Shown here: piece after piece, positions 1,677 to 7,800 of the stretch
Layout: each line of letters opens with the position of its first letter
Numbering within the stretch: position 1 is the first letter of the stretch
NCBI GenBank assembly: GCA_016699635.1
Contig: CP064983.1
Location: 1,980,048-2,044,047, forward strand
Source of the DNA: Bacteroidota bacterium
Lineage (GTDB): Bacteria; Bacteroidota; Bacteroidia; AKYH767-A; OLB10
Reading direction: 5' to 3'
DNA length: 64,000 nt
The notes under the pieces: model-generated
What the model was told of the DNA's origin: nothing
The model's input: the letters and a program-made list of their open reading frames with translations, nothing else
Databases searched by the model: none
Made by a program: the position numbers and the translations under genes

Positions 1677-1692
1677 ATTGATTTTGAAACGT

Positions 1693-1731
1693 GAGGCTGT
1701 CTCAATTTTTTGAGGCAGCCTCTTTTTTTTT
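1693..1731 (+). terminator. Intrinsic terminator
   Basis: GAGGCTGTCTCAA…TTGAGGCAGCCTC stem followed by a T9 tract. Confidence 0.85.
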
Positions 1732-1744
1732 AATATACACCCCC

Positions 1745-1842
1745 GTACCCGCGAAGCTCCTGCTTCGTGGGATAAATGCATAAAAGCTGTGCTTTGCATT
1801 ACATGGTGTTAAGTACCTAAAAGCTGTGCTTTGCATTACATG
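1745..1842 (+). repeat. REP copy (GTACCCGCGAAGCTCCTGCTTCGTGGG) plus 25-bp direct repeat at RAYT 3' end
   Basis: 1745-1771 is the exact reverse complement of the hairpin in array units 4 and 5. TAAAAGCTGTGCTTTGCATTACATG occurs at 1781-1805 and 1818-1842. Confidence 0.9.
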
Positions 1843-2387
1843 CTCAACACTTTAACGGGGCTGTTCTCATTAGCGCTACTTAACCGCCACAAATGCGGTT
1901 CATCTACAAAACCGGCTTCCACCGGGTTGTTATGTATGTAATTTATTTTTTGATCTATTATCCTGTTGCTATATAATTCAAATGCATGATTGTTATGTTG
2001 CCAAAACTGCCTGTATTGTTTATGGGGTGATATTTTACCATAATATTTAAATTCTTTAATTAGCCACTCACGTCTGCTTTCAAGCATATTTTCTTCTATG
2101 GCATCCATAAGTTTTTTTGACGAAAAGGCTTTCATATCACGTATCAGGTCATTCAATATTCCTTCTTTCCTTTTGGCAATAATGTGAACATGACTTGGCA
2201 TTACACAATAACAATACAGTTGCAAGCCTTTGTCTTGTTGGCAGTAGATTAGACTATTAATTAGTATATCCTGATAAACTCTTCTTGTAAATATATCTAA
2301 CCAGCCCACAGTGGTAAAAGTTACAAAGTATAACCCTCCAGGAAATGTTTTATATGTTTCTGACATTATATATTTATGTTTATACAA
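1836..2387 (-). CDS. REP-associated tyrosine transposase (RAYT, Y1/HUH family)
   Basis: LYFVTFTTVGW N-terminus, HUH motif (MPSHVHII), FWQ…H, YIHNNPVEAG (catalytic Tyr region), WRLSSA; flanked by palindromic repeats. Confidence 0.9.
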   Translation of the reverse strand: MYKHKYIMSETYKTFPGGLYFVTFTTVGWLDIFTRRVYQDILINSLIYCQQDKGLQLYCYCVMPSHVHIIAKRKEGILNDLIRDMKAFSSKKLMDAIEENMLESRREWLIKEFKYYGKISPHKQYRQFWQHNNHAFELYSNRIIDQKINYIHNNPVEAGFVDEPHLWRLSSANENSPVKVLSM

Positions 2388-2595
2388 ATGTTGTAATTTT
2401 ATTTATAATGTTGTTCATTGGTGTTCAAAGCACAGCTTCTATACACAAAGCACGAAGCAGGAGCTTCACGGGTACAGTTCATTGCTGTTCGAAGCACAGC
2501 TTCTAAACACAAAGTACGAAGCAGGGGCTTTGCGGGTACGGTGTTGTTCAATGCTGTCTTGTCCTGAAATAGGTTTACACTAAAAAGTGTAAAAC

Positions 2596-3042
2596 ATGGA
2601 TAAAAAAATCATTCAAAAAGCGGGTAAGTATTTTACCGTAGAAGAAAAACACAAGATCATTCAGGAGTTAATTTCAGCCCAATGCACCAAAGTGGAAATT
2701 TGGGAAAAATACACAGGTGAAGTTGAAGAGCACGGACAGCTTCTTAGATGGATGCGGCAGTTAGGGTATAACACCGGAATTAAAACAAGAAGACCTAACA
2801 TTGTATCAAATTTATATTCGATGGCACAAAAGAGAATTAAGTCTGATAATCCCGATAGCTATCGGGAGGTTAAAGTAGGAGATGAATCTTTTGAAAACCT
2901 GCAATTAAAGAAGCGAATAGCTGAATTAGAAAAGCAATTAAAGGATGCAGAATTAAAAGCAATTGCCTTTTCCACGATGGTAGATATTGCAGAAAAGGAG
3001 TTTAAAATTCCAATCAGAAAAAAGCTCAATACCAAACCATAG
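2596..3042 (+). CDS. IS3 OrfA (HTH + coiled coil)
   Basis: N-terminal HTH-like segment, coiled coil LKKRIAELEKQLKDAELK; A6G motif at 3018-3024 near its end. Confidence 0.85.
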   Translation: MDKKIIQKAGKYFTVEEKHKIIQELISAQCTKVEIWEKYTGEVEEHGQLLRWMRQLGYNTGIKTRRPNIVSNLYSMAQKRIKSDNPDSYREVKVGDESFENLQLKKRIAELEKQLKDAELKAIAFSTMVDIAEKEFKIPIRKKLNTKP

Positions 3043-3047
3043 AAGCA

Positions 3048-3970
3048 ATGAAAAACAACTTTGCACACATAGGATTAGCCAAGTTATGTGGATGGTTTGG
3101 TATCACCAGACAGGCTTATTATCAAAACAACTGGGAAGGAGTTTCAACTACCCTGGAAGAAGATTTGATAATACAAAGGGTAAAGGAAATTCGTAAAAAC
3201 CATCGTAGAATGGGCACACGAAAACTGTATGAAATGCTGCAACCATTTATACTAGAACACCAAATAAAAATAGGTAGAGATGCCTTGTTTAACATGCTTT
3301 CAGCAAATCATTTATTGGTGAGAAAACGAAAGCGGAGAATACAAACAACTAACTCTTTTCACTGGTTGCGGAAGTATCCAAATCTCATTCGTGAGTTTGT
3401 TCCTACAGCACCCAATCAGCTTTGGGTGAGTGATATTACCTATTGGAAGATAAGCACTGGAGAACATCTTTACATCAGTTTTATTACCGATGCTTACTCA
3501 CATAAGATTGTTGGCTATCAGGTAGCCGAAACAATGGAGACTATTGAAAGTATGCAAGCCTTGCAAATGGCTCTTTCTGCTTTGGGGCAAAGAGTCATTT
3601 GAATCTCATCCATCACAGCGACAGAGGCATTCAATATTGCAGCCATGCTTATGTAAAGCTATTGCAGGACTACAATATAAAAATAAGCATGACTGAAAAT
3701 GGCGACCCTTTAGAAAATGCTGTAGCTGAAAGAATAAACGGAATTATTAAAGAAGAGTATTTAGAAACTTATGATGTTGATAACCTCAAAGATGCAAAGG
3801 GTTTACTAAAAGCTGTAGTGGATCTATATAACAACGAAAGACCTCACATGAGCATCAGTAACTTTACACCAAACAGCATTCATCATTCAAAAAGTAAAAT
3901 TAAAACAGAAAGATTATGGAAGAATTATTATCGAAAAATTCCTACTATTGTAAACCCAATTCAGGACTAA
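3048..3970 (+). CDS. IS3 OrfB DDE transposase (rve integrase core; frameshift in G-run ~3583-3588)
   Basis: PNQLWVSDITY, IHHSDRGIQY, NAVAERINGIIKEE, YNNERPH. One extra G joins the two ORFs. Confidence 0.9.
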
Positions 3971-4333
3971 AAATGAACTGTAAACTTATATCAGGATTAA
4001 TTAATCAAACTGTAAACTTTTTTTAGGACGAGTCATGCTGTTCGAAGCACAGCTTCTATACATAAGGCCCACGAAGCAGGGGCTTTGCGGGTACGGTGTT
4101 GTTCATTGCTGTTCGAAGCATAGCTTCTATACATAAGGCCCACGAAGCAGGAGCTTCGCGGGTACGGAGTTCATTGCTGTTCGAAGCACAGCTTCTATAC
4201 ATAAGGCCCACGAAGCAGGAGCTTCGCGGGTACAGCCACTATGCCAAACTTTTCTTTAAAACTTTATATCACACAAAATCAGCCAATTAAAATTTTTGGC
4301 TATAAATTATTGAATGCCGATGAAATAAAAAAG

Positions 4334-4430: not shown

Positions 4431-4826
4431 ATGAACATTCATGCTTCACAAAACACTCCTTATTACAGCCGCAGCCCAAGGGCAATTGGCAGTGTAGCAG
4501 CATATATAAAGTTGTTGCTGAATGTGCCTTTGTTGTTTGCCGTAGTTTTTTTGGTAAGCCGCATGGCTTTTTCTTTTACACAAAACTTCCACAACAAAAA
4601 ACGACCCAACCGCTTTGCCCTTATTAACGAAGTGCAGGCGCGTTTGCAAACAGTATCTTTTATAGAAATGGTGCAGCAGCAAACAAAAGGCAAAAACCTG
4701 CTTGCAACAAAAAGTATTAAAACGCACAGACAGCAAAACACAGCAGTAAAAAAATATTTACTGCAAAGTGCATTTTATAATGGCGGCTATATTGACCCGC
4801 CAAAAATTGAAACGAAATTTTCATAA
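4431..4826 (+). CDS. Possible small membrane protein (or untranslated leader)
   Basis: 131-aa ORF with one hydrophobic stretch between the promoter and the first giant gene; no recognisable family. Confidence 0.3.
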   Translation: MNIHASQNTPYYSRSPRAIGSVAAYIKLLLNVPLLFAVVFLVSRMAFSFTQNFHNKKRPNRFALINEVQARLQTVSFIEMVQQQTKGKNLLATKSIKTHRQQNTAVKKYLLQSAFYNGGYIDPPKIETKFS

Positions 4827-4871: not shown

Positions 4872-7800
4872 ATGATAACTAAAAATCAAACAAAAAAACG
4901 AACGTCTTTAACAAGACTATTTCTTTGTCTGACAGCTTTAATTATGCTGTGGACAACGGGCGCACAGGCGCAAACTACTGTTACCATTGGTAGCGGAACA
5001 GGCACAAGTACTTATTAGTACTTTATTACTTTTATGACTTTAGCTACACGCAACAAATTATTTATGCCTCTGACATTACCTCAGGTGGCTGGGGTGGTGG
5101 ATCTGGATTGATTACCAAAATTCGTTTCAAGCCTAAAAACAATGTTGCAAGCACTGCAAATTGGAAAGACTGGGTGATTTATATGGGTAATACAACTAAA
5201 ACTACCTTTACTTCTACTACTGATTGGATTATGCCTGGAAGCATGACAACGGTTTTCAATGCTTCAATTCCATCAAGTTTAACTGCAAATGTATGGATGG
5301 AACTGACTTTGAGTACTCCTTTTTTATGGGATGGAACAAGTAATTTAGTTGTTGCAGTTGATGAAAATGTTGATGCATATGGTAGCAGTCCTAATTGGGC
5401 AGGTTATGCGCCAGGAGCAAATAGGGGGATTTATTTTTACAGGGATAATGTAGATGTTCTTCCTGCATCACCCCCTGCAGGTACGAGAAATGGAGCAGCA
5501 ACAAATGTTGCACAAATGCAATTAGATATTACTTCTAGCGTACCTTGTGCCGGTACACCTACACCCGGCACAGCAAGTTCCTCTGTTAACCCTGTATGTC
5601 AGAATAATGCAACCAACCTTGTTCTAACTGGTTATTCTTCCGGACTTGGAATCACATACCAATGGCAAACATCAACAACACCGGGTGGCCCTTATACAGA
5701 TATTAGTGGTGCTACTACAACTACTTATTCTTATTCTCCTGCAACTGCAGGAACAGAATATATAGTTTGTAAAGTAACCTGTACTAATAGCAGCATGGAT
5801 GCATTGTCAAATGAAGTAACCTTAGGGGTAAATGCTTCACCAAGTGGCACGGCAACAGGTCCTGCAACGTTAGTTACCTATCAGAACGGTACTTTTTCTG
5901 TTACAGGTTATCCGGTTGGAACAACATTCCAATGGCAATCGTCTACGGCAAGCTGTGCAACAGGTTTTAGTAATATTCCGGCTGCAACTGCAGATAATGT
6001 ATTGCTAAATTCAAGTGCAGGTGGCACATTCTACATCCGTTGTATGCTAACCAATGCAGGATGCAGTGCACCTTCTAATTGTGTTACCCTGGTAGTAACA
6101 GTTGCAGGAAATAATGTATGTTCTGCAAATACTTTAAATGTAGGTGTTAATGGCCCATATACCAATGTGGGTGCCACTGTAGAAACAGGTGAGGTTGCAC
6201 CTCCTGCAGCTGGTTGCAGCGTGCAAAACGGATGGTGTAACTCAACATTGAGTAATACAGTATGGTTTACTTTTACACCACCTGCAAGTGGACAGTACTC
6301 ATTCCGTTTGGATCCATCACGCACGCTTTGGGATACACAGTTTGCTTTGTGGAATGCATCTTCATGCTCGCCATTTGGAGGCTTTACGATGTTTGCAGCT
6401 AATGATGATTCCTTAAATTCACCATTCAATTCATATATAGCACCTGTTTGTTTAAATGCAGGACAGACCTATTACTTTCAGTTTGATGGTTATAGTGGAA
6501 CAAACAACAACTGGGGCATTTTAGTAACACAGGTAAATACAGTTACTGCAGGCATCAGTGGCTCGCAAACAGGCTGCAGCGCTGTTAACTTAACAGCTAC
6601 AGGCGGCAGCACCTATTTGTGGAGTGGTGGTTTAACACCAAATACAGATGCCAACACTTTCACGGCTTCAGGTCCCTATACAGTAACAGTTACTTCAGCT
6701 CAGGGATGTACATCGCAGGCAACTGCTAACGTTGTAATCAACGTTCCTTCAACAGACCCCGGATCAGCCACCAGCAATGCACCGTTTGATAACATTTGTG
6801 CAGGAGGCAATGTAACCTTATCTGTTGGTGGTGGTACATTAGGTACCGGAGCCCAGTGGCAATGGTACAGTGGTTCTTGTGGAGGCACACCTGTAGGTTC
6901 AGGCAGCAGTATAACCGTTTCTCCTTCTGTTACTACAAATTATTTTGTACGTGCAGAGGGTGTTTGTGGCAACACCATGTGTGTCTTTATTACCATTACT
7001 GTTAATACAGGCATACCAGCACAGGCAGTAACAATTCCAATTGTTGGATTACCTGCTTATGCCTGCAATGCTACAGCAGCTACATTAAGTATTCCTGCAG
7101 TTGCCAATGCAACATTCTATACATGGGATGGCCCTACAGGAACAACATTCGATGGTTTTCCATCACCTTATTCTTCTTTAGCACCAACAGTAAATGTTGT
7201 ATTTGGTAATCCAAACGGCTCAGGTTATAGAATAGGCGTACAGGCAGGTAATGCATGTGGAAGTTCAGCGCGTAAGAGTGAGTGGCTGCGTGGTATTGTT
7301 AGCACTCCTGCAGCAGTAAGCGGAGTAACAACAACATGTGCAAGCACTTCAGGAACCTATACAACAGGACCGGTAGATGGAGCAACATCATATCTGTGGA
7401 CTATTACAGGCGATGCCTCAGTAATTGGCACCGGTACCAGTGTTACAGTAAACTTTGGTCCTGCATGGGCTGGTGGTACACTGTGTGTAAGAGCACAAAC
7501 ACCATGCTACACATCACCATCTAAGTGTCTTGTTATTGGAACTTCTGCATCACCATTAAATACCATCAGTGGCCCATTGTCAGCATGTCCAAATGATGTA
7601 TTGACCTTTAGTGTACCTGCATCATCAGGCGCAGCAAGCTATGCATGGACAGTACCTGCAAACTCCAGTATTTCAGGTGGAGCAGGAACAAATTCTATTC
7701 AGGTAACTTTTGCACCGAACTATAACAACTTAGGCAATATTTGTGTGAATGTAACAAGCATTTGCGGTGTTACATCAGCAACCAAGTGCAGAACGGTAGC

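Follow-up and report, generated by a model that had tools for sequence, protein, structure and literature searches.

What kind of system is formed by a gene for a REP-associated tyrosine transposase (RAYT, or TnpA-REP) that carries hairpin repeats facing outward on both its sides, and does its enzyme multiply the repeats that stand in a row on one of them? The question is raised by positions 1745 to 4233 of a 64,000-nt stretch of DNA from a Bacteroidota bacterium (assembly GCA_016699635.1, contig CP064983.1, positions 1,980,048 to 2,044,047 of the forward strand). We call this whole stretch the window, and give coordinates in it unless another contig is named. The locus is, in our judgement, likely to be a REPtron: an intact single-locus RAYT of the Bacteroidetes subclass 2.6 type together with its cognate repetitive extragenic palindromes (REPs), in which a module of two hairpins has been amplified head-to-tail. 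We infer that the RAYT drives this amplification.

A RAYT gene between outward-facing two-hairpin modules

The RAYT gene, a domesticated gene for a transposase of single-stranded DNA, lies on the minus strand at 1836..2366 and encodes 176 aa from an ATG at 2366, or 183 aa from an alternative TTG start upstream, at 2387. The protein carries its HUH motif within PSHVH, followed by FWQ and by YIHNNP with the catalytic tyrosine. An earlier note, made from the letters of this DNA, had called the gene a RAYT, and the call is borne out by profile, alignment and structure. The protein scores 98.3 bits against NCBIfam NF047646, the REP-associated tyrosine transposase equivalog (cut-off 80), and 25 aligned homologues all keep residues H59, H61, W122 and Y143, among them the two histidines of HUH and the tyrosine. 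An AlphaFold model (predicted local distance difference test, pLDDT, 93) has as its best PDB match 4ER8, the E. coli TnpA-REP bound to a REP (E 1.4e-8), with the ISDra2, IS608 and IS200 transposases next in rank. In a HMMER alignment to 4ER8, HVH of the RAYT corresponds to HMH and NYIHNNPV to DYIYINPV, the catalytic-tyrosine region; the HUH-to-WQ spacing is about 60 residues in the RAYT versus about 35 in 4ER8 (about 23 extra residues). More than 900 homologues were found, most labelled Bacteroidota or Bacteroidia and several annotated RayT. The window holds one copy of the gene, with the same flanks in every strain contig, and the related RAYTs P0113 and P0055 each occupy one conserved neighbourhood across 23-24 contigs. 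P0113, 50% identical, is probably a second RAYT in the same genome as that of the window.

The cognate REP is a 27-nt hairpin, GTACCCGCGAAGC-TCCT-GCTTCGTGGG. One plus-strand copy stands 3' of the gene at 1745..1771, with a GTA foot at 1745-1747, a 10-bp stem and a TCCT loop (44.6 bits, E 6e-12), and forms the outer boundary of the cassette on that side. Five minus-strand copies stand 5' of the gene, at 2447-2478, 2511-2542, 4066-4097, 4137-4168 and 4205-4236. The REP pattern gives nine strand-matches at six sites in the locus and none in dinucleotide-preserving shuffles. Positions and shuffles together thus confirm the arrangement claimed in the earlier note, with one REP on the 3' side, five on the 5' side and the GTAC feet pointing outward on both. 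The strand asymmetry that it described also holds when the REP is folded as single-stranded DNA. The strand reading GTAC pairs over 10 bp without a break, counting a G.T pair at stem pair 4, as in the 3'-side copy (-16.3 kcal/mol, z = -5.5), whereas in the complement the stem is interrupted by an internal A.C mismatch (-13.5 kcal/mol). In GTAC the C is itself the first stem base, in a C-G pair, and the unpaired foot is therefore GTA.

Each REP belongs to a module of about 65 nt: the GTA foot, the 10-bp stem with its G.T wobble and, after a spacer of about 10 nt, a mini-hairpin (AAGC/GCTT) in which the apical part of the REP recurs. The upstream units are 63-71 nt long and each is headed by a REP; the mini-hairpin reported for them is present in five of five as a 5-bp stem, GAAGC-TGT-GCTTC (GAAGC-ACA-GCTTC on the other strand). 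The 3' side, for which no mini-hairpin had been mentioned, has it twice, as AAAGC-TGT-GCTTT. The first lies at 1776..1799 on the plus strand, with its core at 1783-1795 extended by ATGCA/TGCAT, and completes a full module with the adjoining REP. The second lies in a plus-strand half module at 1810..1842, a 33-nt segment that starts with GTACC, has no REP stem-loop and overlaps the RAYT stop codon; it is a copy of 1773-1805 (91% identical, spacing 37). The window therefore has five modules upstream of the RAYT and 1.5 downstream.

All five upstream modules read on the minus strand. Closest to the RAYT start is u1 (2413..2475), followed by u2 (2476..2539), and in both the 3' arm of the REP is 2 nt short in the assembly. 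The third, u3, is severed into a RAYT-proximal 15 nt (2540..2554) and a distal part (4036..4094) that carries the REP variant CCCGCAAAGC-CCCT. Beyond it lie u4 (4095..4165, 71 nt) and the outermost module, u5 (4166..4233, 68 nt), whose GTAC at 4230-4233 is the other cassette boundary. Units u3 to u5 are 90-94% identical to each other and 77-85% identical to u1 and u2, and the linkers between units measure 1, 6, 6 and 3 nt. Every unit, as well as both outer cassette boundaries, begins exactly at a GTA foot. On each side the units run head-to-tail, so that the repeated unit is not the inverted REP doublet that defines a REPIN. Two other identities were considered for the array: a CRISPR-like array is ruled out, there being no spacers, and an array of terminators is unlikely, since no T-run follows the REP stems, though a simple scan flags them.

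The interruption of u3 changes one part of the original description, which had five tandem units upstream: five are present, but they are not contiguous, being split two and three by an insertion sequence (IS) of the IS3 family. This IS occupies 2555..4035 on the plus strand (1,481 bp), with orfA at 2596-3042, orfB at 3048-3970 and TG..CA terminal inverted repeats; its ends were placed at the points where, in metagenome contigs, the match to its other copies breaks off. A 3-bp target duplication, TGC, stands at 2552-2554 and 4036-4038, and excision of the IS in silico restores a 71-nt u3. The orfB product has rve and rve_3 domains, and NF033516 matches its two halves with 131 and 101 bits. In sludge metagenomes (runs X8-X12) the IS has about 2- to 20-fold the depth of single-copy flank, bin by bin, and is thus multi-copy. 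It accordingly has the features by which IS3-family membership is judged, namely orfA with a DDE orfB, TG..CA ends, a 3-bp duplication and multiple copies, and it is a secondary insertion, outside the RAYT system. In one X12 contig the right end of the IS (4031) runs through CACA into its left end (2554); this resembles a circle of IS3 type or a tandem junction and would point to an active IS.

The short stems of u1 and u2 have a different origin. Compared with the window assembly, seven sludge read sets of DNA or undeclared type have CC inserted after 2450; four of the seven have CC inserted after 2514, and a fifth run, X25, puts it after 2515. All four runs covering the IS have a G inserted after 3583, which mends the frame of orfB. 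The window assembly's indels thus shorten the REP 3' arms of u1 and u2 and break the orfB frame, and they are assembly differences, or peculiar to one strain, of a kind typical of long-read assemblies. Because the read sets carry the missing bases, neither the short stems nor the frameshift is a feature of the population.

The same run X25, whose library is labelled as metatranscriptomic and made by reverse transcription (RT) and PCR, also contains a 1,518-nt contig that joins the reverse complement of 2469-2560 to 1752-2448, and so has the RAYT segment inverted between inverted REPs. This inversion is absent from eight other runs and is unconfirmed; RT template switching, an artefact of assembly or a rare inversion could account for the contig.

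Conservation of the module and its number in strains

We compared the flanks of RAYTs from eight other lineages (contigs L031, L011, L009, L014, L015, L016, L023 and L018), whose proteins are 50-78% identical to that of the window. REPs stand beside the RAYTs of all eight, answering the question of whether orthologous genes have such hairpins at all. In L031, L011, L014, L015 and L023 the whole module, consisting of foot, REP, a spacer of about 10 nt and a mini-hairpin (AAGC-N3-4-GCTT), is found inverted on both sides of the gene with its feet outward. In L009 it is clear only downstream, and L016 and L018 have flanking REPs without a clear mini-hairpin, that of L018 on the upstream side only. 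No lineage among these eight has more than one module per side. Upstream of the REP in L015, at 6735-6800 of that contig, are two 34-nt direct repeats that each open with a half-REP, GTAGCCGCTAAGG, lacking the 3' arm; these are another form of local partial amplification at the foot.

An alignment of 18 distinct REPs from nine lineages shows a conserved structure. In the REP helix 95% of cells are paired and five of ten pairs have compensatory changes, with none of 500 shuffles reaching the observed covariation; the mini-hairpin is 89% paired, with compensatory changes at four of seven pairs and again none of 500 shuffles as good. Stem pair 4 is G.U in 15 of the 18 REPs. Because both hairpins covary and pair 4 keeps its G.U, the module is a structured element of two parts that has been conserved, and the wobble too is conserved and not a sign of decay. 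The conserved asymmetry between G.T on one strand and A.C on the other fits strand-specific recognition of single-stranded DNA, which experiments have demonstrated for the REPs of E. coli (PMC3333891, PMC8266576). The "GTAC leader", by contrast, does not stand as the defining feature that it had been taken for. Five lineages, the window's included, have a GTAC foot and three have GTAG or GTAA; in the protein tree the GTAC lineages do not form one clade; and the supposed fourth foot base is the first stem pair, which covaries with its partner (C-G in ten REPs of the alignment and G-C in four).

Within the species, module number differs in steps of whole units on either side of the gene. In other samples, four Logan contigs carry a RAYT at least 99% identical to that of the window, with the same flanks. 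Among these, L007 has one module upstream and 1.5 downstream, L008 has one upstream and 2.5 downstream, both without the IS, and L005 has at least two upstream and 2.5 downstream, compared with five, 1.5 and an IS in the window. A Joint Genome Institute (JGI) contig, L012, has the window's arrangement, IS included. IS-free strains are evidenced only by the one-unit contigs L007 and L008; an IS-free five-unit allele, considered on the strength of loose ends after 2557, was rejected when a u3-u4 contig was found to fit u2-u3 in part. The proposal that this system amplifies head-to-tail units rather than inverted doublets thus holds for this locus in this species; it does not extend to the other lineages, with their one module per side at most, nor to a contig of the P0113 relative, L019, which has inverted doublets (described below).

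The cassette as a whole is also variable. In a sister taxon, represented by L029 (GCA_002352025.1) and L030, both flanks are about 87% identical in nucleotide sequence to those of the window and nothing of the cassette is present. Window positions ~1690-4332 are replaced there by a poorly related stretch of about 270 nt, at L029 9041-9308 and L030 1971-2239. Because the whole cassette is missing from the same site, it has been gained or lost as a block. The limits of the missing block match the outward-pointing feet. The empty site is not precise to the base, however, and no target sequence could be derived from it.

What multiplies the modules

We propose that the ground state of the system is one module on each side of the RAYT, inverted and with feet outward, as in the related lineages, and that in this species the module has been copied head-to-tail beside the RAYT, to a number that differs between strains. 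The IS3-family element later entered the third upstream module. The HUH/Tyr enzyme would bind only one strand of the folded REP, the one with 5'-GTA and the G.T pair, the other strand having the A.C mismatch; it would cut single-stranded DNA at a dinucleotide chosen by the foot and become linked to it through a 5'-phosphotyrosine. Rejoining of the strands could then add or remove module-length pieces, running from one foot to the next, beside an existing foot. Such a "local amplification" step has been proposed for the bacterial interspersed mosaic elements (BIMEs) of E. coli (PMC3333891).

Several observations weigh against this account. Pfam Y1_Tnp scores the RAYT at 21.9, slightly below its gathering cut-off of 23, and we know of no biochemistry for any enzyme of subclass 2.6. 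The 6-nt linker GGTGTT is shared by two junctions, as simple duplication would give, and RecA-dependent unequal exchange or replication slippage can lengthen or shorten a row of 64-71-nt direct repeats without a RAYT. The dispersed copies by which REPs are defined are not seen for the window REP in the data examined. A covariance model built from the 18 REPs and run without filters finds only the six locus copies in the 64-kb window (15-45 bits), the next best match having 12.7 bits and an E-value of 0.15. Four sludge metagenomes, in which the organism is present at 12-36x, show no other REP context around a two-unit stretch: each run has 12 contigs on that stretch, whose loose ends are only the locus flanks, the 3'-side flank and the IS end. 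Among 241 million JGI records the exact REP occurs in one contig of the species, which is the locus itself.

Two other organisms have solitary identical copies. The JGI scan found one identical REP in another organism, in contig L013, where an intergenic region (2987-3580) has the 27-nt GTAC REP followed by unrelated palindromes (for example cgtcattgcgagg..cgacg and ccgccagctggcgg); this region is a hot spot of small hairpin repeats and has no RAYT within 3 kb. A scan of genome contigs with the pattern GTACCCGYRAAGCNNNNGCTTCGT, which is too narrow for 3-nt loops or other apical pairs and did not have the window's own genome among its matches, gave four matches. Three of these are chance-like (GC-rich sequence in unrelated phyla) and the fourth is a true solitary REP in a Bacteroidales metagenome-assembled genome, L004. 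The P0113 relative behaves differently. Its REP is GTAG-GTGCGAGCG (4480-4510 and 9919-9949 in L018), and in its contigs L018 and L019 the REP model finds copies 5.5-7 kb from the gene. Among them are two inverted doublets of about 125 nt in L019, REPIN-like with two extra small hairpins in the spacer, at 2735-2860 and 3412-3536, where they flank a hicAB pair that is not in L018. Dispersal of REPs thus occurs in the family, and none is detected for the window REP in its organism.

The strongest competitor to RAYT-driven amplification keeps the REPtron and makes the array a passive minisatellite, whose modules are duplicated and deleted by unequal homologous exchange or slippage with the RAYT uninvolved. 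We give this account somewhat less than an even chance. The greater similarity among u3-u5 than between them and u1-u2 is what recent duplication of one variant would leave; the repeated GGTGTT linker fits it equally, as does the 37-nt-period duplication on the 3' side, which copied the mini-hairpin alone and no REP, and changes by whole units are expected of any variable-number tandem repeat. A passive array does not so readily explain why linkers of 1, 6, 6 and 3 nt give no single fixed period, why all units and both cassette boundaries nevertheless begin exactly at a GTA foot, or why expansion has occurred on both sides of the gene in opposite orientations. In addition, strand transfer by the E. 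coli TnpA-REP builds tandem copies in vitro (PMC3333891). All of these observations are nonetheless compatible with slippage.

A narrower version of RAYT-driven copying, which we hold to be unlikely although not far-fetched, would see here a REP system at its first stage, in which a newly acquired RAYT cassette copies its bipartite module only in cis. Were the module both substrate and target, this would explain head-to-tail arrays bounded by feet, no dispersed copies, and the mini-hairpin as a second binding site. The GTAC foot may in that case specify a GT cleavage dinucleotide, cut between G and T, that is contained in the foot itself; in a Marinomonas REP, changing GTAG to GTAC redirected in-vitro cleavage to GA and GT sites (PMC8266576).

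We think it decidedly improbable that the cassette of modules, RAYT and modules is instead an autonomous IS-like element, recently transposed or transferred, with the modules as its ends and the extra modules as by-products of one-ended or abortive transposition. Such an element would account for the cassette's complete absence from the same intergenic site in the sister taxon, for limits that match outward GTA feet, for orthologous RAYTs lying in unrelated neighbourhoods across lineages and for the lack of a dispersed REP population in the window, the four metagenomes and JGI. Against it, identical RAYT proteins keep to one conserved neighbourhood across many samples (P0113 and P0055, and the window RAYT likewise), and at the empty site, which is not precise to the base, about 170 nt of unrelated sequence stand in the cassette's place. 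The inverted ends are unlike those of IS200/IS605, the tyrosine motif is the REP-type YIHNNP rather than the IS200-type Y..Q (PMC6006769), and REPtrons of E. coli do not transpose as a unit (PMC3333891).

The suggestion that the array could be transcribed finds support. Exact contigs cover units 3-5 (4036-4219) at a depth of 3-10 in two activated-sludge metatranscriptomes, X37 and X38, and in X37 a 99-nt contig continues past the left array end on the IS side, presumably into the IS. No contig covers 4220-4600 in either run, and none covers the RAYT coding region (1696-2493) in X37, the one run of the two that was compared with this region; such patchiness points to RNA and not to contaminating DNA. 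Read-through from the IS would nevertheless suffice to explain the signal, the contigs carry no strand, and no Rfam family matches the array. Very unlikely, then, is the last alternative, that the array is mainly an RNA or transcription element whose structured transcripts, or stabiliser or terminator hairpins of REP type, insulate or regulate the RAYT promoter region: although REPs do stabilise upstream mRNA in E. coli, and the array contigs contrast with the uncovered stretches beside them and with a depth of 17.9 over the neighbouring 88-aa gene in X37, strandless contigs measure expression poorly, stable hairpins outlast RNA decay and become over-represented, a multi-copy IS yields the signal with no function involved, relatives conserve single modules and not arrays, and the conserved G.T/A.C asymmetry on opposite sides of the gene suits recognition of a DNA strand better than a single RNA.

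The 2.5-kb RAYT block is flanked by this small expressed gene (1410-1676) and by a hypothetical gene (4431-4826). The 88-aa product of the former is a Lys/Glu/Ala-rich signal-peptide protein, and the gene with its terminator (1410-1722) adjoins the cassette. Its transcript contig stops at the terminator, a hairpin at 1693-1722 with a 13-bp stem; the sister taxon has a terminator stem at the same position with another sequence.

Place among known REP systems

The kind of system found here is already published, in three forms: TnpA-REP subclass 2.6 (PMC6006769), REPtrons with strain-variable tandem BIMEs (PMC3333891) and head-tail REP dimers (PMC3733652). The locus is a further example of a class described for this phylum, and strain-variable tandem amplification beside the gene is known from REPtrons of E. 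coli.

Closest is subclass 2.6 (Quentin, Siguier, Chandler, Fichant 2018, PMC6006769), which is RAYT Group 5 of Bertels et al. 2017 (PMC5581495). Its members come from Bacteroidetes and are about 179 aa long, with WQ, YIH[QN]NP and an insertion of about 21 aa between helix C and strand 4; on their flanks the genes carry "atypical secondary structures" that have copies elsewhere in the genome (PMC6006769). Judged by features, the window RAYT resembles them in phylum, length (176 versus about 179 aa), FWQ, YIHNNP, extra sequence between helix C and strand 4, and flanking hairpins. Table S1 of the same paper contains REPs with the CGCG..CGTG wobble core of the window REP, for example GCTCC-CCCGCGAA-TCCT-TTCGCGTGG in Flavobacterium indicum and GCTAG-CGCGAGCG-TCC-CGCTCGTG in Aequorivita (PMC6006769). 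There are also differences. The published structures are atypical and weak and lack GT[AG]G, whereas the window and the sampled relatives have a clear GTA(C/G/A) foot and a 10-bp stem (-16 kcal/mol in the window). The published HUH motif is NH[LIV]H, whereas it is SH[VI]H here, and SHVH in the window protein. Neither a second conserved mini-hairpin nor tandem head-to-tail amplification is described in PMC6006769.

With the REPtron of E. coli (Ton-Hoang et al. 2012, PMC3333891; Messing et al. 2012, 4ER8) the locus shares strain-to-strain variation in unit number, an imperfect hairpin with a foot tetranucleotide on its 5' side, an irregularity of the stem that marks the active strand, and an enzyme whose best structural match is 4ER8. 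The E. coli TnpA-REP requires a GTAG foot and a stem mismatch and ignores the complementary iREP (PMC3333891, PMC8266576), the complementary strand being inactive (Corneloup et al. 2021, PMC8266576); tandem BIME number varies between E. coli strains both beside tnpA-REP and away from it (PMC3333891). The units themselves differ, however: those of E. coli are BIMEs, alternating REP pairs, whereas that of the window is one REP with a truncated REP-like hairpin, in one orientation per side. The stem irregularity is a G.T wobble here and an A-A/G-C bulge in E. coli, and E. coli has about 600 dispersed REPs where the window's organism has none found away from the gene in the data sets searched.

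Other systems match in part. REPtrons Ma and Mb of Marinomonas sp. MWYL1 likewise have REPs concentrated beside their tnpA-REP genes, which has been interpreted as recent arrival followed by multiplication nearby (PMC8266576), but these belong to Proteobacteria, with group 2 and 3 enzymes, GTAG feet and no bipartite module. A direct arrangement of REPs, reiterated with pieces of flanking DNA, likewise marks the head-tail (HT) dimers and tandem clusters that Di Nocera et al. 2013 (PMC3733652) describe; they come from GTAG and CGTC families, chiefly in Proteobacteria, with no GTAC-footed family or second hairpin reported, and the word GTAC is absent from the main text of that paper. The IS200/IS605 elements (IS608, ISDra2) resemble the locus in having a Y1 HUH enzyme, imperfect hairpins in subterminal position and a 5' tetranucleotide that guides the choice of cleavage site. 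Their end hairpins are on one strand, they have many identical copies and they carry Y..Q, whereas the window has inverted ends and YIHNNP, and its relatives sit in single conserved contexts.

The finding thus adds detail to a known class: a clean two-hairpin module and its strain-variable local amplification. For local amplification of BIMEs in E. coli, the support so far comes from strand transfer in vitro and not from a direct demonstration in cells. The locus and its relatives allow the substrate to be defined in testable form, as a GTA foot, a 10-bp stem in which G.T at pair 4 is obligatory, and a second hairpin that repeats the REP apex, and its natural series of strains with one to five modules would make it possible to measure whether local amplification is driven by a RAYT.

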